A stretch of 34,201 nucleotides of DNA from a virus. The position numbers and the translations under genes were made by a program. Position 1 is the stretch's first letter; every line of letters begins with the position of its first letter. The stretch spans positions 1-34,201 of the IMG/VR virus record IMGVR_UViG_3300047383_000085; one strand, given 5' to 3'. Under the pieces are notes generated by a model. It saw nothing but the letters and a program-made list of their open reading frames with translations. It was not told where the DNA came from and did no database searches. Shown here piece by piece: positions 2,973 to 34,201 of this stretch.

Positions 2973-3146
2973 ATGAAATGTTGGCATTGTGAAACAGATT
3001 TAATATGGGGTGGCGATCACGATTTAGACGATGAAGAAGATTCAATCTTTTGTATGGTTACAAATCTATCTTGCCCTAAGTGTGGCTCTCATGTGGATGT
3101 ATATTTTCCCAAAGAAGATGAGATTAGAAGAAGTGGTGAAGTATGA
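2973..3146 (+). CDS. Small Cys4 zinc-ribbon protein (57 aa)
   Basis: Hand translation: MKCWHCETDL...LSCPKCGSHVDVYFPKEDE. ATGA overlaps at both ends. It is a paralogue of 3280..3450. Confidence 0.55.
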   Translation: MKCWHCETDLIWGGDHDLDDEEDSIFCMVTNLSCPKCGSHVDVYFPKEDEIRRSGEV

Positions 3147-3283
3147 GCGATGCAGTCAAAGGCGTGGTCTTTATTGAAGATGCGATTAATCTAAGTCAAG
3201 ATGAATTAAAAAAGAAGTTTAAAGAAGCGGTTGAGAACAATGAAATCAATCACTTTGAAATACAAACGAGAGGTGAAAAATGA
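3143..3283 (+). CDS. Hypothetical 46-aa protein
   Basis: Hand translation: MSDAVKGVVFIEDAINLSQDELKKKF... It is linked by ATGA overlaps to both zinc-ribbon ORFs. Confidence 0.4.
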   Translation: MSDAVKGVVFIEDAINLSQDELKKKFKEAVENNEINHFEIQTRGEK

Positions 3284-3450
3284 AATGTTTTAACTGTAAT
3301 GCCAATATGAAGTTGGAAAGAGAGAAAGATATCAGTCGATACAATAATTTATTTAATCTTAAATTAAGTTTTAGCTGTCCTGAGTGTGGAGCGGTAGCCA
3401 ATGCCTATCCACCCAAAGATGATAACCAAAAGGTGAGTCATGGCGGGTAA
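3280..3450 (+). CDS. Small Cys4 zinc-ribbon protein (56 aa), paralogue of 2973..3146
   Basis: Hand translation: MKCFNCNANMK...FSCPECGAVANAYPPKDDN. It has the same MKC-x2-C ... SCP-x-CG ... Y-x-PK-x-D layout as 2973..3146. Confidence 0.55.
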   Translation: MKCFNCNANMKLEREKDISRYNNLFNLKLSFSCPECGAVANAYPPKDDNQKVSHGG

Positions 3451-3938: not shown

Positions 3939-3969
3939 AAAAACAGAATTAGATTATTAGGAGAAGACA

Positions 3970-4416
3970 TTGAGAGACAGCATTAAAAAAGAATATTGGT
4001 GGGTGAGCGCGGGCGAGGTGGAGAACGAAAGCGAATCACCATTCATCGCCATGAAATACAATTCAATCTTTAGAGATTATTCGAAATTGCGCAAACAAGT
4101 TTGGAACTGGTATCGCACGCACGCGGGGAGAGAAGATTTATCGCCAGTAGCTAAACTTTTACTTTGGAGCGTGTGCGAGCGGTATCGTTGGCAAACCTGG
4201 AGCAGCCACGATGCCATTAGTTATTATTGCAAGATGATAGGGGTGCATCGCACTAGCGCGAGTCGTGGTATGAGTGAGTTATTAGAGAAAGAAGTTCTTT
4301 GGTGTGTGCTAGAGGGTGAGCGCAAGCGGTTAAGGAAATCGCAAGCGGGGGGTAAGAAGCATTTTTTATTGGTTGGTTTAGGTGCGCACTTGCGCGAGGT
4401 GGGGCGCGATAGCTAA
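3970..4416 (+). CDS. Winged-helix / HTH DNA-binding protein, candidate replication initiator or regulator
   Basis: TTG start preceded by AGGAGA. The segment LSPVAKLLLWSVCERY...DAISYYCKMIGVHRTSASRGMSELLEKEVL looks like a wHTH. The gene is conspicuously GC-rich (35 of 60 G+C at 4381-4440). Confidence 0.65.
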   Translation: MRDSIKKEYWWVSAGEVENESESPFIAMKYNSIFRDYSKLRKQVWNWYRTHAGREDLSPVAKLLLWSVCERYRWQTWSSHDAISYYCKMIGVHRTSASRGMSELLEKEVLWCVLEGERKRLRKSQAGGKKHFLLVGLGAHLREVGRDS

Positions 4417-4473: not shown

Positions 4474-4659
4474 TTAAGCTATTATATCCCCGTTTTTAAA
4501 TATTTTTGCCATTTTTAGGCCTTGCGGTGAGATTAAAAGCCAGTTGCCCTCGGTGTCTTGGTGCGAGCGGGTGCGGGAGGGGTATTCAAGATCACCGCCT
4601 AGGCTGTAAGTTTCTTTCATATGGTTAATGTATTTATATTCCGCTATTTCGTATGACAT
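4474..4659 (-). CDS. Hypothetical 61-aa protein, last gene of the leftward operon
   Basis: The ORF abuts the upstream gene with a 1-nt spacer and is on the same strand as its neighbours. Confidence 0.55.
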   Translation of the reverse strand: MSYEIAEYKYINHMKETYSLGGDLEYPSRTRSHQDTEGNWLLISPQGLKMAKIFKNGDIIA

Positions 4660-4660
4660 A

Positions 4661-4870
4661 TTACTTTCCTATTTTATAATCAATGGTATTGCCACAATAT
4701 GAAGATAATTCTTCCATTGCTCCAAGCACACTGGCTGTCTGTGTTTGTTTAAACTCAATAGGCTTTTGAACTTCAAAACCATATTTATTGCAATCTTTCA
4801 TCATTGCTTTTTTATTGGTGTATACATAAACAAGATTATATTCATGGCATTGTGCTACATAAAATTTCAT
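4661..4870 (-). CDS. Hypothetical 69-aa protein
   Basis: ATG at 4870 (MKFYVAQ...) is preceded by GGGGGA. The tracked start at 4885 is a TTG. Confidence 0.55.
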   Translation of the reverse strand: MKFYVAQCHEYNLVYVYTNKKAMMKDCNKYGFEVQKPIEFKQTQTASVLGAMEELSSYCGNTIDYKIGK

Positions 4871-4971
4871 TACATATTCCCCCAATAATTAACGATTAGC
4901 CATAGTATTAAGACTATGACTAACCATATTAAAAAACCAATACCAAAAATAAAACCAAGTATTTCAATCAT
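4870..4971 (-). CDS. 33-aa hydrophobic single-pass membrane peptide
   Basis: Hand translation of the minus strand: MIEILGFIFGIGFLIWLVIVLILWLIVNYWGNM. The stop overlaps the next ATG and the start abuts the upstream stop (TAAATG). Confidence 0.4.
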   Translation of the reverse strand: MIEILGFIFGIGFLIWLVIVLILWLIVNYWGNM

Positions 4972-5124
4972 TTAAACCTCTTGGCTTTCCATGGGTGAGA
5001 TATGCCTACATCCACAATGCGGACAATCATCGTCCACTTGGCAATCCCAATAATCTTGCCAAGCGTATTCGCATTTTGGGCATTCATAATAGTTCAGCCA
5101 AGTCATTGCTATTTGTTCATTCAT
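4972..5124 (-). CDS. Small Cys-rich zinc-ribbon protein (50 aa)
   Basis: Hand translation: MNEQIAMTWLNYYECPKCEYAWQDYWDCQVDDDCPHCGCRHISPMESQEV. It fills the gap exactly between flanking genes. Confidence 0.55.
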   Translation of the reverse strand: MNEQIAMTWLNYYECPKCEYAWQDYWDCQVDDDCPHCGCRHISPMESQEV

Positions 5125-5309
5125 TAGTGCGATTCCTGGATTATTACATTCTTTTTGCGCTTATCCTCGTAAGATTTAACAATCTTCCCGCATGGATAGG
5201 TTAAGAGCCAATAATCTTTATTAAAGTTCTTGCTCATGCTTGGGATGTTTTCCCTTTCGGTTTTAAGCAAGCGCCTAGCTTCCTCTATCATTTCTTTATG
5301 CTGTGTCAT
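5124..5309 (-). CDS. Hypothetical 61-aa protein
   Basis: ORF with overlapping start/stop junctions on both sides. Confidence 0.55.
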   Translation of the reverse strand: MTQHKEMIEEARRLLKTERENIPSMSKNFNKDYWLLTYPCGKIVKSYEDKRKKNVIIQESH

Positions 5310-5509
5310 GATTCCCCCATTGGTAAATTTAAAAGTTTATCTATTCTGTGTTCATCCAGCGATATAAAGCGCAAGATCTCCTCTTGCTGTCTGTGTGTGT
5401 AGCTGTCGAAGTCTTTTATATACTTTGCTGGATTGTCGAATAGATCGCGCAAGTATTTTATTATTTCGCGCCTAGCGAATTGCTTTGGTGTTAAGTTATT
5501 TATTTTCAT
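5306..5509 (-). CDS. Hypothetical 67-aa protein
   Basis: ATG at 5509 (MKINNLTPKQF...) is preceded by AAGGAGAG. The longer tracked ORF start lacks an RBS. Confidence 0.55.
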   Translation of the reverse strand: MKINNLTPKQFARREIIKYLRDLFDNPAKYIKDFDSYTHRQQEEILRFISLDEHRIDKLLNLPMGES

Positions 5510-5681
5510 TATTGCTCTCCTTATAATTTTTATAATACAATTTAATTTCATTCGGTCTTGAATCTGAGCATTCATCCTCGGTCATTCCACATACAGAACA
5601 AGACAAGTTATCTGCCTTAAGATGTATGTAGTTATCTTCACATTCGCAATCCCAGTATTTAGGGTCTGTTTTAACTGTCAT
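5496..5681 (-). CDS. Small Cys-rich zinc-ribbon-like protein (61 aa)
   Basis: KYWDCECEDNYIHLKADNLSCSVCG. It shares the YWDC motif with 4972..5124. Confidence 0.55.
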   Translation of the reverse strand: MTVKTDPKYWDCECEDNYIHLKADNLSCSVCGMTEDECSDSRPNEIKLYYKNYKESNNENK

Positions 5682-5899
5682 GCTCTCTCCCCCTTGGTTT
5701 TATAAGTTTTTAAAATGGTTTTGACTTTGTTTACTAAGTCTTGGTAATTTTTCGCGCTGTATCCGTTAGCCTTGAATAATTCCAAGGCTTGCGGATTGAT
5801 TAGCGGGTTGTCATTGGTGTGCGCTAAGAACCAGTTAAGAAGCTCTAATTCTTGGCGGTTAATCTTTGGCTTGTTGAAGTTGTATCTAGCTAGGCTCAT
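5678..5899 (-). CDS. Hypothetical 73-aa protein
   Basis: 4-nt overlaps with both neighbours. Confidence 0.55.
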   Translation of the reverse strand: MSLARYNFNKPKINRQELELLNWFLAHTNDNPLINPQALELFKANGYSAKNYQDLVNKVKTILKTYKTKGERA

Positions 5900-6084
5900 T
5901 GGTCTACCCCCAAATAATCGTCAATCCACTCTAAACATTCCGCTTTAGTTCCCCAGTAATCAAGGCCATCTTTTAGGCATTGCACATAATAAAAAGGCGT
6001 AAAATTATTTTTATCTAATGTTGAACCAATCCATTTTTTAGGGCTGTCAACATACAAAAGCTCAAATATGTTTTTAATAATCAT
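5896..6084 (-). CDS. Hypothetical 62-aa protein
   Basis: ORF in the operon register with a 4-nt overlap downstream. Confidence 0.55.
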   Translation of the reverse strand: MIIKNIFELLYVDSPKKWIGSTLDKNNFTPFYYVQCLKDGLDYWGTKAECLEWIDDYLGVDQ

Positions 6085-6086
6085 AG

Positions 6087-6275
6087 TTAAACCTCTTCAG
6101 CAAAATATATTTGACTATCGCCAATCAGCACGCTGTCGTTAATTTCCCATTCAATAGAATCATCATCTTTTGCTAACTCCTCGGCTTGCTCTAATGAATC
6201 CGCGTATATGTACGCTTCTTTTTGCATGGTGTATGTTTGGGTTATCCTAAACTCTTTTAATGTATCAGCGCTCAT
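6087..6275 (-). CDS. Hypothetical acidic 62-aa protein
   Basis: ATG at 6275 (MSADTLKEF...) overlaps the upstream stop (TAATG). 16 Asp/Glu against 4 Lys/Arg by direct count. Confidence 0.55.
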   Translation of the reverse strand: MSADTLKEFRITQTYTMQKEAYIYADSLEQAEELAKDDDSIEWEINDSVLIGDSQIYFAEEV

Positions 6276-6412
6276 TAGATCACCCACGATATAAGAGTTA
6301 ATAAGGATGCAAAGAAAAATATAATGATTATATTCTCGGTAATTGTCCGCGCTTGGTTCGTCCAGTGTTGCGGTTTTCTTGGCTTGTGTAATTTGTGCGC
6401 GTAGTCTTTCAT
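6275..6412 (-). CDS. 45-aa protein with a C-terminal hydrophobic segment
   Basis: Hand translation: MKDYAHKLHKPRKPQHWTNQARTITENIIIIFFFASLLTLISWVI. TAATG junctions at both ends. Confidence 0.4.
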   Translation of the reverse strand: MKDYAHKLHKPRKPQHWTNQARTITENIIIIFFFASLLTLISWVI

Positions 6413-6588
6413 TATTTCCCCCTTAATAGTTGAATGAGTTTATCGTGCAAAATGTCGATTTCTTTTGGGTTTAATTGATCGTTTATAGTCTCTTCATAGT
6501 TATCTATAGGGATACTGGTTGAAGAATAACTATTAACGCTATTGATAATATGAGTCAATAAACCTAATTCTTTTTTATTTAATTCCAT
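6412..6588 (-). CDS. Hypothetical 58-aa protein
   Basis: Hand translation: MELNKKELGLLTHIINSVNSYSSTSIPIDNYEETINDQLNPKEIDILHDKLIQLLRGK. The start abuts the upstream stop (TAAATG). Confidence 0.45.
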   Translation of the reverse strand: MELNKKELGLLTHIINSVNSYSSTSIPIDNYEETINDQLNPKEIDILHDKLIQLLRGK

Positions 6589-6915
6589 TTAGGCCACCTC
6601 TTCAAGTTTATTAACATACTCAGAAACAATCTCTTCACCTATGATGTAGGTATACATATTTACAACTCTTTCAGCATCGCTGAAATCGGTTGATACTTCG
6701 CCAAATTCAGATTTCTCATATTCTCTAATATGTTCTATAACATCAAAAACTTTATCGCCTAGCCATTGCTTAGCTTGGTAAGTGCCTATGATGTAATAAT
6801 CAGTATTGAAAGCATGGTGATGAAGATCATCCTTGTTCTCTTCTATCCATTCCGCATCTTGATCATTAATGAAATCATCAAAATATTCTTTTATCTCTTC
6901 TCTTTTATAATCCAT
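6589..6915 (-). CDS. Strongly acidic 108-aa early protein
   Basis: 29 Asp/Glu against 10 Lys/Arg by direct count. It is the second gene of the leftward operon, with an AGGAGAG RBS upstream. Confidence 0.65.
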   Translation of the reverse strand: MDYKREEIKEYFDDFINDQDAEWIEENKDDLHHHAFNTDYYIIGTYQAKQWLGDKVFDVIEHIREYEKSEFGEVSTDFSDAERVVNMYTYIIGEEIVSEYVNKLEEVA

Positions 6916-6956
6916 TTTTACTCTCCTTTAATAAATGGGTTGCTTATACCACGAAA

Positions 6957-6974
6957 GCCCCGAAAAGACGGGGC
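6957..6974 (-). terminator. GC hairpin between genes 1 and 2 of the leftward operon, a possible attenuator or terminator
   Basis: On the minus strand: GCCCCG-TCTTTT-CGGGGC followed by TTTCG. It lies in the only sizeable gap in an otherwise gapless operon. Confidence 0.45.
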
Positions 6975-6993
6975 GTTAAATCGTGGGGGGTTG

Positions 6994-7197
6994 TTATGCT
7001 ATTGCTTGCTCTTCGTAATTGTCGATGTAATGGCGCAGAATTTTAGAAACTTCTTTGGGTGAATAATCTATAAATTTATTTCTATATTCAAAATCATCGT
7101 CAAAATAATTGTGCATAGATACTTCAATTAAACTGTGATGCACAGTTATAAACATAAAATAATTTTTATAATTTTCTTGGTATTCTTCAATTATCAT
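6994..7197 (-). CDS. Hypothetical acidic/aromatic 67-aa protein, first gene of the leftward operon
   Basis: ATG is preceded by AAGGAGAG. It lies directly downstream of the divergent promoter region. Confidence 0.6.
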   Translation of the reverse strand: MIIEEYQENYKNYFMFITVHHSLIEVSMHNYFDDDFEYRNKFIDYSPKEVSKILRHYIDNYEEQAIA

Positions 7198-7232
7198 TTT
7201 TACTCTCCTTAATTAGTTAATGAACACTATCT

Positions 7233-7260
7233 ATAATACGCACATTTTCACACATTGCAA
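7233..7260 (-). promoter_or_regulatory. Sigma70-like promoter candidate for the leftward operon
   Basis: On the minus strand: TTGCAA (7255-7260), a 16-nt spacer, then TATTAT (7233-7238). The overlapping plus strand reads TATAAT at 7232-7237. The surrounding 165-bp gap is AT-rich with TTAATTA repeats. Confidence 0.45.
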
Positions 7261-7362
7261 CATATTTATATAAATTAATTATGGGTTTTTGTGTAAATCC
7301 TTTAATATAAAGGCATAAGGGAACATTAATTAATTACAATTAATTACTAATAAAAATGAATT

Positions 7363-7815
7363 ATGGAACAAAAAACGCCTAAAAAGAGAGGAAGAAAGGC
7401 TTTAATTCTCACACAAGATCAAATTAATCAAATCGAGTATCTTTGTTCTTTAAACATGGGAATCATGGACGTCTGCCGAAGTTTGGGGATTAGTTGGAGT
7501 TCGTTCGATAAAAATCGAAAGAAAAAACAAGAAATAAATGACGCAATCGAGAGGGGAAAAGCTAAAGGATTGCAAAGAGCAACTTCTAAACTTATGGAAA
7601 AAATAGAGGATGGCGAATTTCAAGCGATCCAGTTCTATCTCAAATCAGCCGATCGCGAGCGCTGGGCAGAAAAAGCTGAAATTTCCCATACTTTAAATTT
7701 AAGCGAGATCATATCGAGCGCCAACGCGCGCATAATCGAACACAAAGGCGAAGCGCTAGCGCACGCGCCCGAAGAGATCGACATAAAACAATTAAACAAG
7801 GCCACGAAGTCATGA
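7363..7815 (+). CDS. terS: Terminase small subunit-like HTH protein
   Basis: N-terminal basic segment plus HTH (QINQIEYLCSLNMGIMDVCRSLGIS), then ...AIQFYLKSADRERWAEK, typical of small terminases. It lies upstream of TerL. Confidence 0.6.
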   Translation: MEQKTPKKRGRKALILTQDQINQIEYLCSLNMGIMDVCRSLGISWSSFDKNRKKKQEINDAIERGKAKGLQRATSKLMEKIEDGEFQAIQFYLKSADRERWAEKAEISHTLNLSEIISSANARIIEHKGEALAHAPEEIDIKQLNKATKS

Positions 7816-8079
7816 GAGCTTGCGCACGGGGTAATTATCTTCTCCCTTGTACCTACCCACGCGCACGAACGCGCGAAGCTCTAGCGCCACTCTCCGCGCT
7901 TCTGATAGCGCGTTCACTTAATTACAGTCTAGGCGCGCGCTAGGGTGATAGTAAACACTTACTATAATGAAAGTTAGTACTTACTATCGCTGTAGACCCC
8001 CCAGCTTCGTTCAGGGCGCGGGGCAGTGTACATGGAACTCTTGCGATAATTTTTTTTAATTTTTTTTTAAATTTTTTTT
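7816..8079. other. 264-bp structured GC-rich non-coding spacer ending in three phased T-tracts
   Basis: No credible ORF. 37 of 60 G+C at 7861-7920. It carries CTAGCGC/GCGCTAG motifs, mutually exclusive hairpins and T8-AA-T9-AAA-T8 directly before the TerL ATG. Confidence 0.8.
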
Positions 8080-9612
8080 ATGAAATATAAAGCCGAAGAC
8101 GAAAAGAGATTGATGACAGAGATATGGTCAGTCAATGTAAAAGACGATCCATTAAATTTTGTTAAGTTTGCTTTCCCATGGGGAATGAAAGACACCCCCC
8201 TCGAAGACTTTAAAGGCCCGCGTAAGTGGCAGGAAAAAATTTTGCGAGAAATGACAATCCATATTGCTAGAAATGGCACTAGGGATTTACCAGAGATGTT
8301 TAGAATGGCTGTAGCTTCAGGTCGTGGTATTGGTAAGTCTGCTTTGGTTGCATGGATTATTCTTTGGATGTTGTCCACAAGACTGGGGGCTACCATCATA
8401 GTAACCGCTAACACCGAACAACAGCTTAGAAGTAGAACTTGGGCTGAACTTGGTAAGTGGATGACTCTTGCAATCAACTCTCATTGGTTTCAAAAAACAG
8501 CAACCACAGTCAAACCAGCACCTTGGTTTCAAGAAGCGCTAGAGCGCGACCTCAAGATTGATACTGGTTATTACTACGCGCAGGCGCAACTATGGTCAGA
8601 AGAAAATCCAGATGCCTTTGCGGGTATTCACAGCTCCTACGGGGTCTGTTTAATCATGGATGAGGCTTCGGGTATACCTTCGCCCATCTACAGCGTATCC
8701 GAGGGTTTCTTCTCTGAACCAACATCCAATCGTTACTGGTTTACTTTCTCCAACCCGCGCCGAAACACAGGCCCATTCTACGATTCCTTTAATAGCAAAA
8801 AGCGCTTTTGGCAAAATGTACAAATCGACTCGCGCACAGTCGAAGGCACTGACCAAAAGCTCTTCCAATCGATGATCGAGCAGTATGGCGAAGATTCCAC
8901 AGTCGCGCGCGTGGAGGTCATGGGCGAGTTTCCTAGCGCGGACGATGATACTGTCATACCGCTTGACTTAGTGCGCGGTGCGGTAGAACGCGATGTCACG
9001 CTCACCGCGAATGAACCAATCGTTTGGGGTTTGGATGTTGCGCGATTCGGTGGCGATAACAGTGCGCTGTGCGTGCGCCAGGGAAACACTGTCTTAGAAA
9101 TAAAATCATTTGCCTCCATGGACTTGATGCAACTTTGTGGTGTGGTTAAAAACCGCTACGATGATTGTACTGTGATGGAAAGACCGCAAGAGATCTTGGT
9201 CGATGTGATTGGACTTGGTGCTGGGGTGGTTGATCGATTGCGTGAGCAAAATTTACCAGTGCGCGGGGTGAATGTGGCAGAAGCTCCAAGTACCAAAAAG
9301 AACTATTTGAACTTGCGAGCTGAGTTATGGTTTGCGATTAAGGATTGGCTGGCGCAGCGTGATTGCCGACTTCCTAATGATGATGAGCTTGTATCAGAAT
9401 TAGCTGCGCCTCTTTACAAATATACTTCGACTGGAAAAATAAAGATAGAGTCAAAAGATGAAATGCGCAAACGCGGAATAAAATCTCCAGACAAAGCAGA
9501 TGCACTTGCATTGACCATGGCAAGTTCGGCTGCAAGTTTTAGTGGAAGCGAGAGTTATTTCGGTTATAATTTCAAAAAACCTTTAAAATCTCGAATCATT
9601 CGAGTGGGATAA
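8080..9612 (+). CDS. terL: Terminase large subunit
   Basis: Walker A-like VASGRGIGKS and Walker B-like CLIMDEAS. C-terminal RNase H-like nuclease motifs GLDVARFGGDNSAL, LVDVIGLGAGVVDRL and SPDKADALAL. 510 aa. Confidence 0.95.
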   Translation: MKYKAEDEKRLMTEIWSVNVKDDPLNFVKFAFPWGMKDTPLEDFKGPRKWQEKILREMTIHIARNGTRDLPEMFRMAVASGRGIGKSALVAWIILWMLSTRLGATIIVTANTEQQLRSRTWAELGKWMTLAINSHWFQKTATTVKPAPWFQEALERDLKIDTGYYYAQAQLWSEENPDAFAGIHSSYGVCLIMDEASGIPSPIYSVSEGFFSEPTSNRYWFTFSNPRRNTGPFYDSFNSKKRFWQNVQIDSRTVEGTDQKLFQSMIEQYGEDSTVARVEVMGEFPSADDDTVIPLDLVRGAVERDVTLTANEPIVWGLDVARFGGDNSALCVRQGNTVLEIKSFASMDLMQLCGVVKNRYDDCTVMERPQEILVDVIGLGAGVVDRLREQNLPVRGVNVAEAPSTKKNYLNLRAELWFAIKDWLAQRDCRLPNDDELVSELAAPLYKYTSTGKIKIESKDEMRKRGIKSPDKADALALTMASSAASFSGSESYFGYNFKKPLKSRIIRVG

Positions 9613-10101: not shown

Positions 10102-12249
10102 ATGGCAAAAGATTACGAAGACAAAATGGAAGATGTGGTTAGTTCTGAAACTGACATGGAGCATCTTGCTGGTGTTATTAAATCAGAGATGGATGATGCA
10201 AAAGATTTCATTCATCAAGTGGGTGCAGAGCGAGCAGAATCTACAGAATATTATTTAGGTGAGCAACCACAAGCACAATCTAGCATGCAGTCTGAATTTG
10301 TTTCGACTGATGTTAGAGATAGCATTTTGTTTATGCTTCCATCTATCATGCGTACATTCTTTGGCACTAAAAAGATTGTTGAATTTGTACCGCATGGTCC
10401 AGAAGATATCCCTGTTGCCGAGCAACAAACTAACTATGTTAATTACATCATTCAAGAAAAAAACCAAGGCTTTCAAGTTTTATACGATGCGTTTAAAGAT
10501 GCGTTGGTTAGAAAGAGTGGTTTTGTCAAAGTCTTTTGGGATGATTCTATTTTAGCATCTACCAGCGAATACACAGACTTAGATCCTGTTTCATATCAAG
10601 CCTTAGTGCTTGATCCTAATGTAGAGGTTGTTAAAGAATCTGTCACCATGGAAATGATGACCCAGGTTGATCCTCTGTCTGGCGAAGAAGTAACACAAGA
10701 GATTCCTGCTAAGTACGATGTAACCATTCGTAGAGTTAAAGCCAAAGATCAAGTGTGTATTGAATCCATACCACCCGAAGAAGTTTTAATTTCACGCAAC
10801 GCGCGCGATCTTGAATCTGCATCTTATGTCGCGCACCGCATGATTAAATCTGTTTCTGATTTGGTTGCTATGGGTTATGACCAAGACGAAATAGAACAAT
10901 ACGCAACCCAAAGCTCAAGCGCGGTTGACCCAGAAGCCTTTGATGAGATAGAAGCAAGAAATCCATTTGACAACATGGTGTACCCAGACAGAAATGATAC
11001 TGGGGCGAAAGAAGTTTTATATGTTGAACATTATCTTTTTTATGACTTTGATGGCGATGGCATTGATGAAAGAATTAGAGTTTGTACTGCGGGTGAAGGT
11101 GTGAATGTGTTGAATGTAGAACAATGGGATGATTTACCTATTGCTATGTTCTGCCCAGATCCTGAACCACATACTGCAATCGGTTCGTGTCCAGCGGATT
11201 ACTTAAAGCCTATCCAAGCTGCAAAATCCCAAATTATGCGAGATACCCTTGATTCGCTTGGACACTCTATCTTTCCTCGTATGGCTGTTGTTGAAGGTCA
11301 AGTCAATATTGACGATGTACTCAATACTGATATCGGACAGCCCATTCGAGTTCGCGCCCCTGGGATGGTTCAACCCTTTACAGTACCCTTCGCTGGTAAA
11401 GAGGCTTTCCCTGTTCTTGGATACCTCGATGAAGCAAAAGAGAATAGGACTGGTGTGTCTAAAGCCTCTGCTGGCTTAAATGCAGATGCTTTGCAATCAA
11501 GCACCAGTGCAGCTGTGTCCGCTACCATGTCAGGAGCGCAAGGCCGAATAGAAATTATTTGCAGACATTTTGCAGAGGGTGGACTCAAACAACTCTTTAA
11601 AATTACTAACAACTTAATTATCAAACATCAAAATGCACAAGATGTATTTAGACTAGAGGGTCAATTTATTCCTGTTGATCCTAGATACTGGGAATCAGAT
11701 AAAGACATGGTTGTTAATGTGGCTATCTCTAAATCTTCTGATGAAGAGAAGTTTGCAATACTTGCACAGCTTGCAGGCAAACAAGAACAAATCATGCAAA
11801 CTCTTGGGCCAAGCAATCCATTGGTATCCATGCAACAATATTCTAATACTTTGACTCGCATGATCGAGATGGCTGGATTTAAAGATCCACAAGCGTTTAT
11901 TAATACGCAAGTACCACCTATGCCTCCGCAACCGCCTGAGTCACAACAACCTGATGCAGCTACCATGCTCGCACAAGCAGAAGCTATGAAAGCGCAAAAC
12001 CAAGCGCAGAAAGCTATCATTGATGCTGAGACTGATCGCATGAAGATCATTATGGATGATGATAGAAACAGAGATGAGACAGAAGCGCAGATTAGACTTA
12101 AAGCAGCAGAATTAACTGCTAAGTATGGCGCACAAGTCAACATTGCAGAGATAAATGCTATCATGGAGCGTGACCGAGAAAACATTAGGCAAACTGCAAA
12201 AGATCAAGCTCAAGGACTATTTACTGGCAATGGCAATCAAACTATATAA
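10102..12249 (+). CDS. Portal protein
   Basis: 715 aa, immediately after TerL. It has a long C-terminal Ala/Gln/Glu-rich helical tail (AEAMKAQNQAQKAIIDAETDRMK...) like P22-type portal barrels. Confidence 0.85.
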   Translation: MAKDYEDKMEDVVSSETDMEHLAGVIKSEMDDAKDFIHQVGAERAESTEYYLGEQPQAQSSMQSEFVSTDVRDSILFMLPSIMRTFFGTKKIVEFVPHGPEDIPVAEQQTNYVNYIIQEKNQGFQVLYDAFKDALVRKSGFVKVFWDDSILASTSEYTDLDPVSYQALVLDPNVEVVKESVTMEMMTQVDPLSGEEVTQEIPAKYDVTIRRVKAKDQVCIESIPPEEVLISRNARDLESASYVAHRMIKSVSDLVAMGYDQDEIEQYATQSSSAVDPEAFDEIEARNPFDNMVYPDRNDTGAKEVLYVEHYLFYDFDGDGIDERIRVCTAGEGVNVLNVEQWDDLPIAMFCPDPEPHTAIGSCPADYLKPIQAAKSQIMRDTLDSLGHSIFPRMAVVEGQVNIDDVLNTDIGQPIRVRAPGMVQPFTVPFAGKEAFPVLGYLDEAKENRTGVSKASAGLNADALQSSTSAAVSATMSGAQGRIEIICRHFAEGGLKQLFKITNNLIIKHQNAQDVFRLEGQFIPVDPRYWESDKDMVVNVAISKSSDEEKFAILAQLAGKQEQIMQTLGPSNPLVSMQQYSNTLTRMIEMAGFKDPQAFINTQVPPMPPQPPESQQPDAATMLAQAEAMKAQNQAQKAIIDAETDRMKIIMDDDRNRDETEAQIRLKAAELTAKYGAQVNIAEINAIMERDRENIRQTAKDQAQGLFTGNGNQTI

Positions 12250-13098: not shown

Positions 13099-13206
13099 AT
13101 GCCAATGGTAGGAAAAAGGAAATACTCATACACAAAAGCTGGTGTGAAAAAAGCAAAAGCTGCTGCTAAGAAGAGCGGTAAAAAAATGACTTATAAGAAA
13201 AAATAA
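13099..13206 (+). CDS. 35-aa H1-tail/protamine-like basic peptide
   Basis: Hand translation: MPMVGKRKYSYTKAGVKKAKAAAKKSGKKMTYKKK, 14 Lys/Arg in 35 residues. AGGAG RBS lies 7 nt upstream. Confidence 0.5.
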   Translation: MPMVGKRKYSYTKAGVKKAKAAAKKSGKKMTYKKK

Positions 13207-13227
13207 GTGAAGCCATCCTCGGCAAAA
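13196..13227. repeat. 32-bp perfect direct repeat, copy 1
   Basis: AGAAAAAATAAGTGAAGCCATCCTCGGCAAAA is identical to 13534-13565, checked base by base at an offset of 338 bp. Mismatches flank both ends. Confidence 0.95.
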
Positions 13228-13236
13228 ACCGAATGA
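13207..13236 (+). pseudogene. Duplicated, truncated 5' end of the nuclease gene at 13545
   Basis: GTG AAG CCA TCC TCG GCA AAA matches the first 7 codons of 13545..13922, then stops after 9 codons. The TGA overlaps the ATG of the ParB-like ORF. Confidence 0.55.
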
Positions 13237-13544
13237 CTCTTTATCAGATGATTAATAAACTTAAACAAGATATGAAAGAAAATCATCATAAAGATTGGCT
13301 TGGATGGGTAGCTAAAAATAAAGTTTTTAAATTAAAAACCATTCCTATAGACTCTGTAGCACCAGCAAATGGTTTGACACTTGACCAAAATAAGATAAAT
13401 AATATGACTAAAAGTGATTTGAGTAATGCTCCTGTTATTGTGGTTCATAAAGATGGCAACATTATTGATGGCAATCATAGACATTCAGCATTAAAGAAAC
13501 AAGGCGCTCAAACAATACAAGTTTACACAGGCGAGAAAAAATAA
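13233..13544 (+). CDS. Stand-alone ParB/Srx-fold (ParB N-terminal nuclease-like) domain protein
   Basis: PVIVVHKDGNIIDGNHRHSALKKQGAQTIQVY matches the ParBc core (P-x-V...DG-x-HR). 103 aa. It is bracketed by the 32-bp repeats. Confidence 0.7.
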   Translation: MTLYQMINKLKQDMKENHHKDWLGWVAKNKVFKLKTIPIDSVAPANGLTLDQNKINNMTKSDLSNAPVIVVHKDGNIIDGNHRHSALKKQGAQTIQVYTGEKK

Positions 13545-13565
13545 GTGAAGCCATCCTCGGCAAAA
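13534..13565. repeat. 32-bp perfect direct repeat, copy 2
   Basis: Identical to 13196-13227. It contains the ParB-like gene stop and the GTG start of the next gene. Confidence 0.95.
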
Positions 13566-13922
13566 GCCAAGGGTCGAAAACTACAGCAATGGGTTGTTGA
13601 TAAACTTGTTGCAATACTTGGTTTTGATCCTGAAGATTTAGAATCAAGACCTATGGGATCTTCTGGCGAAGATGTCATTATGGGCGTTCAATCACGCAAA
13701 CAATTCCCCTACTCAATCGAGTGCAAAAACCAACAAGCAGTTAATGTTTGGAAGGCTTATGAGCAATCTTGTACTAACTGTAAAGATTACGAGCCTTTAG
13801 TTATAATAAAACGAAACAATACTAAACCATTGGCATTAGTCGATGCAGAGTATTTTATTAAACTGCATAAGGATCAAGATGGAACAAGAACCGAAAATAG
13901 AGATACACCAACATCAGAATAA
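13545..13922 (+). CDS. PD-(D/E)XK nuclease, Holliday-junction-resolvase (Hjc)-like
   Basis: KGRKLQQWVVDKL...GSSGEDVIMG...YSIECKN gives a D...E-x-K arrangement with an N-terminal helix, as in archaeal-type resolvases. GTG start. Confidence 0.55.
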   Translation: MKPSSAKAKGRKLQQWVVDKLVAILGFDPEDLESRPMGSSGEDVIMGVQSRKQFPYSIECKNQQAVNVWKAYEQSCTNCKDYEPLVIIKRNNTKPLALVDAEYFIKLHKDQDGTRTENRDTPTSE

Positions 13923-14133: not shown

Positions 14134-14435
14134 TGACCGAAGCAAAAGTCAATGATAGGACTACCTTTAATATTTCTATTAGTTATCTAATACAAATTAT
14201 TCTTGCTATTGCTGCTTTTGTTTATGGTTATGCTTCTATCAGTGAACACATAGAAAAAAATGACACAGAAATAAAAAATTTACGAGCTAACCAAAATACA
14301 TATATTTTTCCTGATATTAGATTGTTAGAACAAAAGGTAATAGTCTTGGAAAAAGAAGTGTTGGTTTTACAAAAAGAAATAGAATTTCATAAAAAAGAAA
14401 TTCAAGGCATCAAAAAAGGTATTGAAAATGATTAA
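14133..14435 (+). CDS. N-terminal TM anchor plus coiled-coil protein
   Basis: ISYLIQIILAIAAFVYGYASI is followed by heptad-like LEQKVIVLEKEVLVLQKEIEFHKKEIQGIKK. Confidence 0.55.
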   Translation: MTEAKVNDRTTFNISISYLIQIILAIAAFVYGYASISEHIEKNDTEIKNLRANQNTYIFPDIRLLEQKVIVLEKEVLVLQKEIEFHKKEIQGIKKGIEND

Positions 14436-15780: not shown

Positions 15781-16644
15781 ATGGCAATAGGAATACCAGG
15801 GCAATTACCAGGACAATCAATGGCAGGGCCAGTCGCAACTGGTCAAGCATATGCACAACAAATAGCTGGTGGTATGCCAATGGAACAAGTCATTGCACCA
15901 GGCGTTAGTTATTCTCCTGAACAAGCGGGTGGTTATACACAAAAAGATTTAGATATGATAGCAGCAGGCCCAGCTCCTGTTATGCCTGTAGCGCCTACAA
16001 CTGGTGAGGTTGCAACAATAGAAGATCAGATGCCTTATGCACCACCTGGTGTATCAGAGCCAACTAGATTTATGCCTTTTCTGCAAAATTTAGATTTTAG
16101 TGGTTTGCCAAGGTATGAAGATATTAGAGATATAAGAGGTGTTGAAGATATTACACCAACATTATTTGATATTGATGTAGAAGAAATGCTTAAAGATATA
16201 GACACAAAAAAATTTGAAGACATAGATTTAACGGGTATTGATATACCAGCAATACCACAAGTACCAGTTATGCCTACAGTTCCAGTAATACAACAACCAA
16301 TAACGCCATCAATACCACAAGTTCCTGTAATGCCTGAAGTTCCTGTCATGCCTACAGCACCAGTTTTTAAAGAACCAATGCCATTTGTTTCAGAAATACA
16401 AAACATGCCCATGAACTTTACTGGATTACCTCAAATGCCAGTAATGCCAAATATTCCAGTCATGCCTCAATTACCAATTGTGCCACAACCGATAGTGCCA
16501 CAACCAATTCAGCCAATGAACTTTACTAGATTATCTAACTTACCAGTTTCTAATTTTGTCCAGCCTAGCGTTGAAGAGATTGTATCTCCAATTAGTAGAG
16601 GCAGAACATTACCACAAACACCAAGAGGATTATTTGGTTTATAA
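15781..16644 (+). CDS. Pro/Val/Met-rich repeat protein (287 aa)
   Basis: Repeated IPQVPVMP(T/E)VPV, LPQMPVMPNIPVMPQLPIVPQPIVPQPIQP. The middle is acidic. Confidence 0.7.
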   Translation: MAIGIPGQLPGQSMAGPVATGQAYAQQIAGGMPMEQVIAPGVSYSPEQAGGYTQKDLDMIAAGPAPVMPVAPTTGEVATIEDQMPYAPPGVSEPTRFMPFLQNLDFSGLPRYEDIRDIRGVEDITPTLFDIDVEEMLKDIDTKKFEDIDLTGIDIPAIPQVPVMPTVPVIQQPITPSIPQVPVMPEVPVMPTAPVFKEPMPFVSEIQNMPMNFTGLPQMPVMPNIPVMPQLPIVPQPIVPQPIQPMNFTRLSNLPVSNFVQPSVEEIVSPISRGRTLPQTPRGLFGL

Positions 16645-17997: not shown

Positions 17998-18933
17998 ATG
18001 GCTAAAGTAACAAACGCATTTGATACATACAGCGCGACTTCAGACAGAGAAGATTTAAGTAATATCATTTACAACATCTCTCCAATGCAAACTCCGTTTA
18101 TGTCATCAATTGGAAAAAGAAATATTAATAATGTTGTCTTTGATTGGCAAACAGAAGTATTAGCAACTCCAGTTGCTACTGGTGAACTAGAAGGTTTTGA
18201 ACTTTCAAGATCTGCTTCAGTTGCAACAACCAGAGTTAGCAATGTTGCTATGATTTCAAAAAGAGATGCAACTGTATCAGGCTCACAAGAGTCTTCAGAC
18301 CCTGCTGGTAAGAGATCAGAAATGGCTCACCAACTAGCTATCATGTCTAAAGCTCTCAAGAGAGATATGGAAGAAGCTCTTTGTCAAAATGGCGACAAAA
18401 CAACTGGTAACGCTACAACTGCTCGTGTAACTGGTGGTTTCGAGTCTTGGATTACATCCAACGATTCAAGAGGAACTGGCGGTGCATCAACAGGTGGCGG
18501 TGCTGCTCCAACTGATGGAACTCAAAGAGATCTAACAGAAGATCTTTTAAAAGATGTTTTACAACTTTGTTTTGAAAATGGTGGCGAACCATCAATGGCT
18601 ATTTGTGGCCCACATAACAAACAAGTAATCTCTGGTTTCACAGGTAGAACTCAAGCAAGACAATTTGTTGACTCTAATACTGTTGAAGCATCAGTATCTA
18701 TCTATTCATCTGACTTTGGTGAACTCAAAATCGTTCCATCAAACAGATCAAGAGAAAGATCTTTACTGTTGGTTGATCCTGAATTTGCAAAAGTATCTTA
18801 CTTGCGTGATTTCAAAACAGTTGACATTGCTACAATAGGCGATGCAATGACCAAAATGATCGTGGTTGAGTATGGATTAGAAGTATCCAACGAAGCTGCT
18901 CATGGTATCGTTGCTGACCTTAATGTAAGTTAA
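17998..18933 (+). CDS. Major capsid protein (HK97 fold, SU10/DUF5309-like)
   Basis: The N-terminus FDTYSATSDREDLSNIIYNISPMQTPFMSSIG is the family signature. 311 aa, followed by a strong terminator. Confidence 0.85.
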   Translation: MAKVTNAFDTYSATSDREDLSNIIYNISPMQTPFMSSIGKRNINNVVFDWQTEVLATPVATGELEGFELSRSASVATTRVSNVAMISKRDATVSGSQESSDPAGKRSEMAHQLAIMSKALKRDMEEALCQNGDKTTGNATTARVTGGFESWITSNDSRGTGGASTGGGAAPTDGTQRDLTEDLLKDVLQLCFENGGEPSMAICGPHNKQVISGFTGRTQARQFVDSNTVEASVSIYSSDFGELKIVPSNRSRERSLLLVDPEFAKVSYLRDFKTVDIATIGDAMTKMIVVEYGLEVSNEAAHGIVADLNVS

Positions 18934-18952: not shown

Positions 18953-18981
18953 AAAGGGATGTTTCGGCATCCCTTTTTTTT
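18953..18981 (+). terminator. Rho-independent terminator after the capsid gene
   Basis: AAGGGATG-tttcgg-CATCCCTT followed by a T8 run. Confidence 0.8.
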
Positions 18982-20346: not shown

Positions 20347-20904
20347 ATGGCCTCAGTAGGCTATGGCTCATATAACTACGGAATTGCCGCTTATGGCACT
20401 CCGCAGTATCAGGAAGCATCCGCAACAATAGCACAGACATCAGGTGCGTCTGCGATAGGCAGACAGCTTGATCGTGGTGTTGCAACCATTGCACAGACAT
20501 CTGGTATGTCTGCGGTTGGTACTCAAGTAGATCGTGGCTCTGCAACCCTAGCACAAACCAGTAGCATGACTAGTGTGGGCCATAGAGTCCATCTTGGTTC
20601 AAGCACCATAGCACAAACCTCTGGCATGAGTGCTGTAGGCAAACAAATCGATAGAGGTTCGGCAACCATTGCACAAACCTCATCTATGAATGGTGCAGGT
20701 CGATACACCATAGCAGCACACGCAACTGGTGCAGAGACATCAGACTTTACAGCTATTGGTAGACAGATCGATAGGGGCAAGGTTGATGGCAGCTTGTTCC
20801 CTCAAGAAACAAGTGGATTTTCAGCAAGTGGTGGTCTAAAATGGGAAGTGATACAGAATCCTGACACGACCTGGACTCAATTAACAAAAGAACAAGCGGC
20901 ATAA
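20347..20904 (+). CDS. Tandem-repeat structural protein (six 20-aa repeats)
   Basis: (S/V)AT(I/L)AQTS(G/S)MSAVG-x-Q-x-DRG repeated six times. It lies in the tail-fibre region. Confidence 0.7.
20419..20778 (+). repeat. Six in-frame 60-nt tandem repeats
   Basis: The 60-nt period is visible directly: GCAACCATTGCACA(G/A)AC(A/C)TC recurs at fixed offsets in successive 60-nt lines from 20401 to 20760. The copies have diverged at the nucleotide level. Confidence 0.85.
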
Positions 20905-32240: not shown

Positions 32241-32444
32241 ATGACAGACACCGATAGAGTCTTTATAGACACTAAGCAACTAGCTAAAAGGTGGGGCAAA
32301 AATCCACACGCGCTATCAAATTTAAGGCGCAAAGGCGGAGGCCCTAACTATTATAAGATTGGCGGTAAAATTCTTTATGATCTATCAGAGATCAAGCAAT
32401 TAGAAGAAAGCTCATACGTTTCCAATGGCTCACGCAATATTTAG
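32241..32444 (+). CDS. Excisionase/AlpA-type HTH DNA-binding protein
   Basis: FIDTKQLAKRWGKNPHALSNLRRKGGGPNYYKIGGKILYDLSEI is the MerR-superfamily Xis-like HTH pattern. AGGGAGTAT RBS. Confidence 0.65.
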   Translation: MTDTDRVFIDTKQLAKRWGKNPHALSNLRRKGGGPNYYKIGGKILYDLSEIKQLEESSYVSNGSRNI

Positions 32445-33373: not shown

Positions 33374-34101
33374 TGTCATTAGCTGCAATTCAAAAGAAAG
33401 GTAAAGTAAAACCACCAAGGCTTATATGTTATGGCCCAGGCGGTATTGGTAAAACATCATTTGCCGCAAGCATGGATAAATGTGTAATCGTACAATCTGA
33501 AGATGGTATCGGAAAGATTGAGTGCGATCACTTTCCAGTAGCCAAAAGTTATGAAGAGTTTATGAGCAATCTAACTTCTTTATTGACAGAAGATCACGAA
33601 TTTCGTGTTGCCTGTATTGATTCGTTAGACTGGCTAGAAACTTTGTTATGGGATCATGTCTGCAAAGAAAATGGTTGGGCGCAAATAGATACACCTGCAT
33701 ATGGTAAAGGCTATGTTGCAGCTCTTGATAAGTGGAAAGAGTATGTTGAGGTTCTTAACAGACTCAGGGATGAAAAATCTATGACTGTGATACAGATTGC
33801 ACACAATCAGATTCGCAGATATGAAGACCCATCTAATGATCCACATGATCGACATGAAATTAAACTACATCGTAAAGCTGCTGACTTATTGGTAGAACAT
33901 AGCGATGCAGTCTTTTTTGCCAACTACAAAGTTGGAACTGTACAAGTCAAAGGCAAGATGGGTATGACTACCAAGACTGTTGCTGGAGACAGAACTATTT
34001 TTACTGAGCAAGCACCTGGTTATATGGCCAAGAATAGATATGGCTTGCCTAGTGAGATGCCTTTTGAGTGGGCAACCATAAGAGAGGAAATGTTGAAATG
34101 A
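33373..34101 (+). CDS. Sak4-like RecA-fold ATPase (AAA_24 family-like)
   Basis: Walker A RLICYGPGGIGKTS, Walker B-like RVACIDSLD and TVIQIAHNQ. 242 aa, in the typical position between the exonuclease and SSB. Confidence 0.75.
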   Translation: MSLAAIQKKGKVKPPRLICYGPGGIGKTSFAASMDKCVIVQSEDGIGKIECDHFPVAKSYEEFMSNLTSLLTEDHEFRVACIDSLDWLETLLWDHVCKENGWAQIDTPAYGKGYVAALDKWKEYVEVLNRLRDEKSMTVIQIAHNQIRRYEDPSNDPHDRHEIKLHRKAADLLVEHSDAVFFANYKVGTVQVKGKMGMTTKTVAGDRTIFTEQAPGYMAKNRYGLPSEMPFEWATIREEMLK

Positions 34102-34201
34102 GCCGATTAGGAGAAGTTGAAAGAGTAAAGAGAACCTTAAAACTGTTTGATATGATCTTGAATAAACACATAGATTCTATCAATCCAGAGGACAACTCTT
34201 T
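34075..34201. repeat. Terminal overlap copy 2, identical to 1..127
   Basis: Direct comparison of the two window ends. The unique genome length is therefore 34,074 bp. Confidence 0.95.

Follow-up and report, generated by a model that had tools for sequence, protein, structure and literature searches.

The genes for the small and large terminase subunits stand 264 bp apart in IMG/VR virus record IMGVR_UViG_3300047383_000085, a phage sequence given as one strand, positions 1 to 34,201 of the record; this entire stretch is called the window below. The subject of this study is the spacer between the two genes, at 7816-8079.

7363-7815, plus strand: terS, small terminase (PHROG 309, E value 7e-15)
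8080-9612, plus strand: terL, large terminase (PHROG 2, E value 6e-48), first gene of a plus-strand block

The window ends in an exact direct repeat of 127 bp (1-127 = 34075-34201), and 127 is a common maximum k-mer length of assemblers. The repeat is probably an assembler overlap, and the window is therefore taken to be a complete, circularly assembled phage genome of 34,074 bp with a G+C content of 38%. An initial annotation of the sequence had given the extent of the terS-terL gap exactly. Its statement that the genome otherwise has almost no intergenic space was too strong, since gaps of 244, 213, 210, 165, and 153 nt exist, but the 264-nt gap is indeed the largest. The strings that it quoted are all in place: CTAGCGC at 7881-7887, GCGCTAG at 7937-7943, TAGCGC at 7906-7911, GCGCTAGCGC at 7753-7762, GATAGTAA at 7947-7954, ACTTACTAT at 7957-7965 and again at 7979-7987, TATAAT at 7963-7968, and T8-AA-T9-AAA-T8 at 8050-8079, followed by ATG. 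Its G+C counts (37 of 60 at 7861-7920 and 15 of 60 at 14221-14280) are exact as well; over 7700-7999 the G+C fraction is 0.52 to 0.56, against 0.38 for the whole window. Three of the four plus-strand runs of at least eight T's in the genome lie inside the spacer, and folding of the spacer, on both strands, was better than that of 200 of 200 shuffles (z of about -3.9). As had been noted, TerL lacks a Shine-Dalgarno sequence, whereas most other genes of the genome carry AGGAG-like ones.

The spacer was said to hold no credible open reading frame (ORF), and the relatives bear this out: its only ORFs, of 43 and 35 amino acids, are interrupted by 1-nt indels in relatives with a 99% identical TerL. 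For the same reason, the possibility that the spacer is a degraded gene was rejected. No tRNA was found in the spacer, and a prophage attachment site (attP) or tRNA fragment had no support. A search of Rfam 15 gave no match at gathering score in the window or in 12 representative loci, the sole subthreshold match having an E value of 3.5.

Sequence comparison indicates that the spacer is a real, conserved, structured, noncoding functional element of several parts and that it consists of two independent modules: an optional 5' module, at 7816-7990 in the window, and a universal core, at 7997-8057 and continuing into extra T-tracts. The comparisons show that the spacer is strongly conserved, modular, fixed in geometry, unique in the genome, and linked to TerL rather than to the DNA-binding domain of TerS, and that its RNA stems covary.

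Conservation of the spacer among TerL relatives

Relatives of TerL were collected from 341 IMG/VR stretches and more than 562 metagenome stretches, all of them apparently marine. The first 80 loci were compared, a pattern search added 119 stretches, and 183 loci with a TerL start were analyzed; L numbers below denote individual loci. In the first 80 loci, TerL is 85 to 100% identical to that of the window and TerS is only 28 to 92% identical. All 80 have a terS-terL spacer, mostly of 87 to 266 nt and of about 660 to 700 nt in three with an inserted gene, and an equivalent spacer is present in nearly all loci read. The initial annotation had stated that its finding would weaken if the spacer were not conserved in position or motif content; its position is kept in nearly all of these loci. 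At the nucleotide level, its first 110 nt are 89 to 99% identical to the window where terS is about 75% identical, so the spacer is linked to terL and better conserved than terS. The two modules recombine independently, as in L097, which joins a window-type 5' half to an L003-type core.

These patterns could also arise if the spacer were a functionless linker for exchange of terS cassettes, with its conservation reflecting recent ancestry shared with terL: a mosaic boundary lies at the 3' end of terS, and spacer identity tracks terL. This explanation is hardly credible given the compensatory stem changes with conserved loops described below, the invariant blocks and fixed geometry across 40 clusters of less than 85% identity, and the retention of that geometry in a phage whose TerL is 39% identical.

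Universal core and optional 5' module

At 175 of the 183 loci, a core of the form C6-9, N29-33, AACTnnTGnnnTAA, T6-9 lies before the first gene of the block. It always precedes that gene, be it TerL, a Shine-Dalgarno-bearing ORF of about 30 amino acids, or a gene inserted there. The parts of the core in the window are as follows.

7997-8002, plus strand: poly-C tract, C6 here and C6 to C9 in relatives; invariant in 175 loci; 5' edge of the core
8006-8011, plus strand: -35-like TTCGTT; TTGNNN in most relatives, with TT conserved; CCCCCCCTTGAA in L090
8014-8026, plus strand: G-rich block GGGCGCGGGGCAG; consensus g.gGggG at -16 to -13
8027-8034, plus strand: alternating pyrimidine-purine tract TGTACATG; its last six bases, TACATG, lie 17 nt past TTCGTT
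8036-8049, plus strand: AACT box AACTCTTGCGATAA (consensus AACTnnTGnnnTAA), the highest-information block of the core; once in the genome
8050-8079, plus strand: T8-AA-T9-AAA-T8; first tract universal, second and third optional; abuts the TerL ATG without a Shine-Dalgarno sequence

Measured from the start of the C run, AACT lies at a distance of 38 nt in 114 loci and of 39 nt in 50 others (164 of 175), despite C runs of 6 to 9 nt, and the core occurs only once in the complete genome. The consensus of the 40 clusters reads CCCCCCctT...tt.....g.gGggGtat..ta..t..AACTa.TgaacTAAttTTTTTT. Over the 6 to 10 nt before AACT, pyrimidines and purines alternate (e.g., TGTACATG, TACGTGT, and TATATATA), with the pattern kept and the sequence not; the hexamer equivalent to TACATG is TACGTG, TATATA, TACGAG, or TATACA in relatives. 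Phage C72C1, the one with a TerL 39% identical, has ACCCCCCC-N31-AAC (C7-N31-AAC) before TerL, and homology to the core is visible (TTCGCTCAGGCGCGGGGGC versus TTCGTTCAGGGCGCGGGGC in the window). In this phage (L204, OQ984150), two tandem poly-C modules occupy 1370-1462 before TerL, the first reading ACCCCCCCTTCGCTCAGGCGCGGGGGC..AAC and the second CCCCCCCCCTTCAACCACATAGG; they are homologous to the window and L109-type cores, and two tiny ORFs are annotated there in GenBank.

The T-tracts had been described as three phased tracts that would bend the DNA. Among relatives their number is not constant: 13 distinct leaders have one tract, 24 have two, and 20 have three, so strong bending is not conserved. 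What follows the tracts also varies. A single T7-8 tract is directly followed by ATG in L117, L090, and L085; in L083 and L093 types, GGAG or GAGTAG comes after the tracts, and then a hydrophobic ORF of about 30 amino acids that overlaps the TerL start; L041 to L043 have the Shine-Dalgarno sequence AAAGGAG after the tracts; and L039, L068, and L086 have a whole gene inserted there. Because of this variation, the core belongs to the head of the operon and not to the TerL start codon. It likewise removes a conserved role for the tracts as a U-rich translation enhancer, one of the functions first suggested, since the tracts persist before the small ORF with its Shine-Dalgarno sequence and before inserted genes; such an enhancer could still operate in this genome.

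The small hydrophobic ORF (in L083, L093, L084, L101, etc.; e.g., MKEVIKGIIEITTIAGLGNFLLFIILVNI) has its own Shine-Dalgarno sequence and a stop that overlaps the TerL ATG, and a comparable hydrophobic ORF of 21 amino acids precedes TerL in Ralstonia phages (about 866-931 in L081, DU_RP_II). Genes inserted between the core and TerL are found in L039, L086, L164, L167, L125, L068, and L072. Their product ends in ...GWD(S/V)WGNEV, their stop overlaps the TerL ATG, and we take them, presumably, to resemble DNA methyltransferases.

The 5' module carries two hairpins and a set of palindromes in the window.

7829-7858, plus strand: hairpin A, stem GGGTA (7829-7833)/TACCC (7854-7858); 20-nt loop ATTATCTTCTCCCTTGTACC with conserved UCUCCCUU
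7883-7900, plus strand: hairpin B, stem AGCGC (7883-7887)/GCGCT (7896-7900); loop CACUCUCC; overlaps the CTAGCGC motif
7929-7943: near-palindrome CTAGGCGCGCGCTAG, which holds GCGCTAG; window-type subfamily only
7946-7967: palindromic unit, copy 1, TGATAGTAAACACTTACTATAA, with perfect arms ATAGTAA/TTACTAT; contains the TATAAT of 7963-7968; optional
7968-7989: palindromic unit, copy 2, degenerate, TGAAAGTTAGTACTTACTATCG, 22 nt after copy 1

As MAFFT misaligned their divergent stems, the 5' modules yielded no fold in RNAalifold, and a motif-anchored search, controlled with shuffles and the opposite strand, was needed to find the hairpins. The loop motif of hairpin A, ..AUCU(U)CUCCCUU..UGUA, is kept across subfamilies with different closing stems: GCGTGTC/GACACGC, TGCGCGYTA/TAGCGCGCA, GCGCGCGC, TGGTTGGC/GCCAGCTA, and AGGGTAG/CTACCCT. 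Hairpin B, AGCGC-cacucucc-GCGCU in the window, has a loop that always ends in CUCC beside the 3' arm (ACUCUCC, AUGCUCC, UUUCUCC, or AUCCUUCC) and a stem formed by at least 15 different complementary sequences (e.g., AAATC/GATTT, TGCTC/GAGCA, and TTGTA/TACAA). All cells pair in a set of trimmed 15-mers of hairpin B, which adds 17 pair types; this set was selected for pairing, and an unbiased test was therefore run. A plus-strand hairpin with a CTCC-type loop (CTCC or CTTCC) was present in 77 of 120 distinct spacers, compared with 11.7 in shuffles (maximum, 18) and 4 on the minus strand. Non-Watson-Crick pairs in hairpin B comprise 10 G.T and 2 A.C, the signature of plus-strand RNA.

Compensatory changes on the sense strand, as in structured cis-regulatory RNA, are thus confined to hairpins A and B. 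The covariation and fold analysis of relatives that had been suggested earlier gives a split result: the hairpins covary, and the core has no fold, RNAalifold finding 0 pairs in it. Two pairings that would involve the core were rejected. A hairpin of the C run with the G run pairs in 67.5% of cells, equal to shuffles, and a pseudoknot of loop B with the G block gave -4.74 kcal/mol for cognate and -4.99 kcal/mol for swapped partners (P = 0.92; swap test). Matches to the ops or RfaH-type site GGCGGTAGnnTG averaged a best score of 6.4 of 10, versus 5.6 in shuffles, with 9 of 10 in L030 only, which is a weak resemblance.

CTAGCGC and GCGCTAG had been named as motifs to which TerS might bind; they are not conserved sites. 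In relatives, the hairpin stem that includes the first is replaced and the loop ending ..CUCC is kept; the second is part of a palindrome specific to a subfamily. The palindromic unit ATAGTAA-N4-TTACTAT is tandemly duplicated with a 22-nt period in the window and occurs nowhere else in the genome. Copy 1 is missing, by a 24-nt indel, in L001, L002, L004, L005, L007, L014, and L015, whose TerL proteins are 98 to 100% identical, and L003-type relatives lack the whole unit. This polymorphic 22-nt duplication accounts for the two ACTTACTAT copies, which had been read as arms of mutually exclusive hairpins. The TATAAT at 7963-7968 also loses its appeal as a promoter element, as it lies inside the optional copy and is TATTAT in other carriers. 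The distant subfamilies L141 and L174 retain the arm sequence, as ATAGTAAG-CR-CTTACTAT; arms that are conserved instead of covarying are expected of a protein operator, and we regard the unit as a putative operator-like DNA site.

In a further subfamily, DnaA boxes stand in place of the hairpin/palindrome module of other lineages. L085, L134, L139, L149, and L186 have two direct DnaA-box matches about 13 nt apart, 10 to 45 nt upstream of the C run. L139 has TGTGGATAA at both positions, L085 has one 9-mer TGTGAATAA and one TGTGGATAA, and in some of the others one of the two copies reads TGTGAATAA or TGTGAGTAA. The spacer of the window has no DnaA box (TTATNCACA) and hence does not resemble a DnaA-dependent origin.

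In the minimal spacers of L028, L049, and L037 (87 to 110 nt), only 13 to 37 nt separate the terS stop from the C run, and the hairpin module is absent. All sequence upstream of the C run is therefore dispensable, and the hairpin module, being optional, is not the essential part of the element.

Candidate functions of the spacer

From terL to 31624, the genes form a co-oriented block of about 23.5 kb (8080-31624), almost all on the plus strand and with tiny gaps. We tentatively read the spacer as a control region, an atypical late promoter with a U-rich leader, that heads this 23-kb operon of TerL and structural genes. A late promoter whose leader controls TerL was among the roles proposed initially, and it remains the best reading of a spacer that is conserved, structured, and present as a single copy ahead of the operon. 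We infer the promoter identity of the core, the transcription start, and the role of the hairpins from the sequences. Counted on these, the arrangement is TTGNNN, 17 to 18 nt, TAYRYR, one or two bases, and AACT. The spacing of TTGNNN and TAYRYR would fit the geometry of sigma-family promoters, with TTCGTT at 8006-8011 as a putative -35 element and TACATG as a possible -10-like hexamer, and transcription would begin within the AACT box or immediately downstream of it. The core is more readily seen as a site in duplex DNA than in RNA because it is single-copy, has a fixed length, no RNA fold, and a pyrimidine-purine pattern, and is abutted by DnaA boxes or palindromes.

Read as double-stranded DNA, the core would present a poly-C tract abutting a TTG-type -35 element, then a G-rich spacer of 17 to 18 bp, a TAYRYR hexamer, and the AACT box around the start site. 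The transcript would carry a U-rich leader, which in this genome would replace the Shine-Dalgarno sequence of TerL. Such a promoter departs from the host sigma-70 consensus and would thus need a phage factor or an alternative sigma factor, which may impose the late timing. The 5' module would be a lineage-specific regulatory decoration. Its hairpins with CU-rich loops, on the 3' end of the terS message, may serve insulation, stability, or termination, and DNA sites for regulators would lie just upstream of the promoter: a duplicated palindromic operator here and two DnaA boxes in another lineage.

Several observations weigh against this reading. A scan of 6800-8400 for the sigma-70 consensus found no match in the spacer; the only matches, at 7233-7276, are ordinary-looking divergent promoters upstream of terS. 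Among 30 representative cores, there was no consistent -35/-10 position and no full sigma-70 match. The proposed -10 element, TAYRYR, never has the near-invariant T at -7, and the best-conserved blocks (C run, AACT, TAA, and T run) are not classic promoter hexamers. The plus-strand hairpins show that transcription passes through from terS, so an internal promoter is not strictly needed. In the distant relatives DSL-LC05, MW202483 (L202), and UFJF_PfDIW6, terS and terL overlap and the spacer element is absent; nor has the core moved to a position upstream of terS in such relatives. The element is thus not a general requirement of this terminase type.

In a rival explanation, terS and terL are cotranscribed and the spacer acts only in the mRNA, without a promoter: the loops, C run, and U tract would set TerL translation (through S1 or a standby site) or direct RNase E processing at the AU-rich leader. 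It is favored by the plus-strand RNA hairpins with their covariation and G.U pairs, by a TerL that, unlike most genes, has no Shine-Dalgarno sequence, by the U-rich tract that abuts the AUG here, and by the lack of a consensus promoter or terminator in the spacer. No intrinsic terminator was found in 6800-8400, where hairpins A and B are not followed by a T run and no hairpin precedes the T runs. We nevertheless consider an RNA-only leader unlikely. There is no conserved fold in the universal core, the minimal spacers of 87 to 110 nt do without the hairpin module, the T-tracts are kept before a small ORF with a Shine-Dalgarno sequence or before another gene, and the test of pairing between loop B and the G block was negative. 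The fixed, unpaired spacing of 38 to 39 nt, the pyrimidine-purine pattern, and the adjacent DnaA boxes or palindromes point instead to recognition of duplex DNA.

The spacer had also been proposed as a pac site read by TerS. L023 and L027 have nearly identical spacers of 158 nt, but their TerS proteins are only 38% identical over 139 aligned residues; they share the C-terminal tail and differ widely in the N-terminal helix-turn-helix. A recombination breakpoint lies inside terS in this pair and between the window and L003. The DNA-binding domain of TerS moves between lineages as a cassette; the TerL-binding tail stays with the spacer and terL. Because a swap of the helix-turn-helix leaves the spacer almost unchanged, TerS does not recognize this sequence specifically, and the reading of its GCGC repeats as TerS binding sites is corrected. 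A pac site read by TerS, if there is one, would be expected within the 5' half of terS or upstream of it.

A packaging function could survive this exchange if the core were a cleavage or entry site on the TerL side (cosN- or pacC-like) and the poly-T stretch were bent or easily melted DNA. The core is unique in each genome, adjoins the terminase genes, and is inherited with TerL and the C-terminal tail of TerS; between G/C runs it contains a short palindrome of alternating pyrimidines and purines (TGTACA, TACGTA, or TATATA), and the T-tracts of this genome start 10 and 12 bp apart. Such a site is improbable in view of the swapped TerS domain with its unchanged spacer, the variation in T-tract number from one to three, and the relatives of the same TerL family that lack the element. 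Dyad symmetry does not extend beyond 6 to 8 bp, the pyrimidine-purine palindrome being the only symmetry that a cos site could use. The genome assembles as a circle with the 127-bp overlap, and near-full-length contigs break at arbitrary places. Upstream contig ends fall within 180 nt in 5 of 43 cases, with about 2.6 expected, and no pile-up was seen among IMG/VR or metagenome contigs, although contig ends, as a proxy for genome termini or transcript ends, are weak evidence. Comparison of TerL and TerS with solved structures was uninformative on packaging type.

A replication origin would combine initiator or DnaA sites with a transcribed region beside an AT-rich unwinding element, here the T-tracts, and would resemble the origins of T7 or T4, in which a promoter is joined to a DNA unwinding element. 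One subfamily has two DnaA-box matches directly upstream of the C run, no DNA in the genome melts more easily than the poly-T block, the site is unique, and the phage encodes a primase-helicase, a single-stranded DNA-binding protein, an exonuclease, and a Sak4-like annealing protein. Still, an origin is very improbable: the spacer of the window has no DnaA boxes, iterons are not present, some members have a single T7-8 tract, and the element is tightly linked to TerL and distant from the replication genes (253-2909), which adjoin the 244-nt gap. GC skew follows gene orientation only and is uninformative.

The late-promoter reading can be extended to an early-to-late switch. Four early genes have Shine-Dalgarno regions to which the loops of hairpins A and B (UCUUCUCC and ACUCUCC) are exactly complementary over 7 to 8 nt: GGAGAGT at 6926 and 7208, both on the minus strand, and GGAGAAGA at 3960 (plus) and 32159 (minus). 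The hairpins might mimic the anti-Shine-Dalgarno sequence of 16S rRNA, so that a late or abundant spacer RNA would pair there and shut off translation of early genes, in addition to the function of the late promoter; TerL, lacking a Shine-Dalgarno sequence and preceded by a U-rich leader, would escape. We regard this as a long shot; in a comparison of loop B with the Shine-Dalgarno sequences of neighboring early genes, three loop types fit covariation and two do not, and shared ancestry confounds the result.

Genome context and known systems

The phage is a small podovirus-type member of a marine lineage, with an SU10-type portal at 10102-12249 (Pfam PF23899, E value 2e-189). Small minus-strand genes form a block at 4474-7197 that diverges from terS. 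No RNA polymerase, sigma factor, NusG/KOW protein, or integrase was detected among the phage proteins. Small Zn-ribbon and helix-turn-helix ORFs (the latter at 3970-4416 and 32241-32444) are present and could encode regulators. Two Zn-ribbon ORFs, at 2973-3146 and 3280-3450 (57 and 56 amino acids), look paralogous, both begin with MKC, and both have subthreshold Pfam matches to zinc ribbons of transcription factors; they are candidates for a late-gene regulator.

The cultured relatives closest by TerL (50% identity or less) are Ralstonia phages RpY1 and DU_RP_II, together with lake and spring metagenome phages and Liberibacter phage SC1, and there was no DNA-level match to the window in the phage collection. 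A match in DU_RP_II, CATGCTCC, was rejected as homology, as it is not kept in RpY1 or C22. A search for the host among metagenome-assembled genomes gave only two contigs, in assemblies assigned to Saccharibacteria and Flavobacteriales; they are too short for host identification. In MW202483, a dense GTTTACAT repeat array, iteron- or operator-like, occupies 400-510, about 600 to 700 nt upstream of a terS-like ORF (1092-1619) and ahead of a homing-endonuclease gene (624-1070).

Elsewhere in the window, 18956-18981 has the classic shape of an intrinsic terminator, GGGATGTTTCGGCATCCC followed by T8, directly after the ORF at 17998-18933; ordinary host-type terminators thus exist in the late block. 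This T8 is the only one on the plus strand of the genome outside the spacer. A 35-nt direct repeat (13196-13230 and 13534-13568; 97% identical, 338 nt apart) covers the starts of the adjacent ORFs 13233-13544 and 13545-13922, which suggests a local duplication. In-frame tandem repeats within structural ORFs lie at 16246-16481, an 18/60-nt periodic CCAGTNATGCC inside ORF 15781-16644, and at 20425-20688, a 60-nt repeat inside ORF 20347-20904.

Marine metagenomes contain this lineage in abundance, and no cultured relative comes closer to it than about 50% TerL identity. If the core is a late promoter, it would represent a new promoter architecture, with an unknown phage factor or an alternative sigma factor of the host timing the expression of head and packaging genes. 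The core also offers a compact sequence signature by which the lineage and the start of its structural operon can be recognized in metagenomes.

Lambda PR'-qut and phi29 A3 are single late-operon control regions of tailed phages. The spacer element shares with them its position, one site per genome directly ahead of a co-oriented morphogenesis operon of more than 20 kb, and, by inference here, a promoter that is off the host consensus and needs a phage factor, with regulator sites abutting it. It differs in lying between terS and terL and not upstream of both, in that no gene for a Q-like protein, sigma-like protein, or known activator was found, and in that no terminator follows it. To our knowledge, its poly-C, AACT box, and poly-T blocks match no described late promoter.

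The site of the SPP1 and P22 pac and lambda cos systems is in or upstream of terS and is read by the DNA-binding domain of TerS. The spacer element is likewise unique and placed beside the terminase genes, with G/C-rich blocks and an AT tract that is possibly bent, but the TerS domain swaps independently of it and contig ends do not pile up there. PeSL elements are intergenic cassettes of T4-type phages in which a stem-loop is combined with an ordinary early promoter, with many copies per genome. The order of a stem-loop and then a promoter module at a mosaic boundary, and the independent recombination of the two, are common to both; the spacer element, unlike PeSL, occurs once per genome and has hairpin loops of conserved sequence.

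The -35 region of sigma-32 (RpoH) promoters offers a further parallel. The Escherichia coli dnaK P1 promoter reads CCCCCTTGAA-N14-CCCCATTTA (PMC10216364), with a C run fused to TTGA(A) at -35 (CCCCCTTGAA; PMC10216364), as it is in L090 (CCCCCCCTTGAA). The distance from the C run to the putative start, about 39 to 44 nt, is also alike. The sigma-32 -35 element is CTTGAA, often preceded by C residues. A C run plus TT(G) is universal in the core, but exact CCCTTGAA occurs only in the L090 type; many members have a degenerate -35 region, including the window (CCCCCCAGCTTCGTT, with TTCGTT). The sigma-32 -10 element CCCCATNT (CCCCAT), about 13 to 14 bp after the -35 element, is absent, and a G run followed by TAYRYR stands there instead. 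With the Rfam-type cis-regulatory RNA motifs of marine phages, the element has in common covarying stems, conserved loops, and occurrence on hundreds of marine viral contigs; it is set apart by an optional hairpin module and by the absence of a match among Rfam 15 families. As far as a limited literature search shows, the element is undescribed, and it most probably represents a known category, a regulatory region, with an unusual modular architecture.

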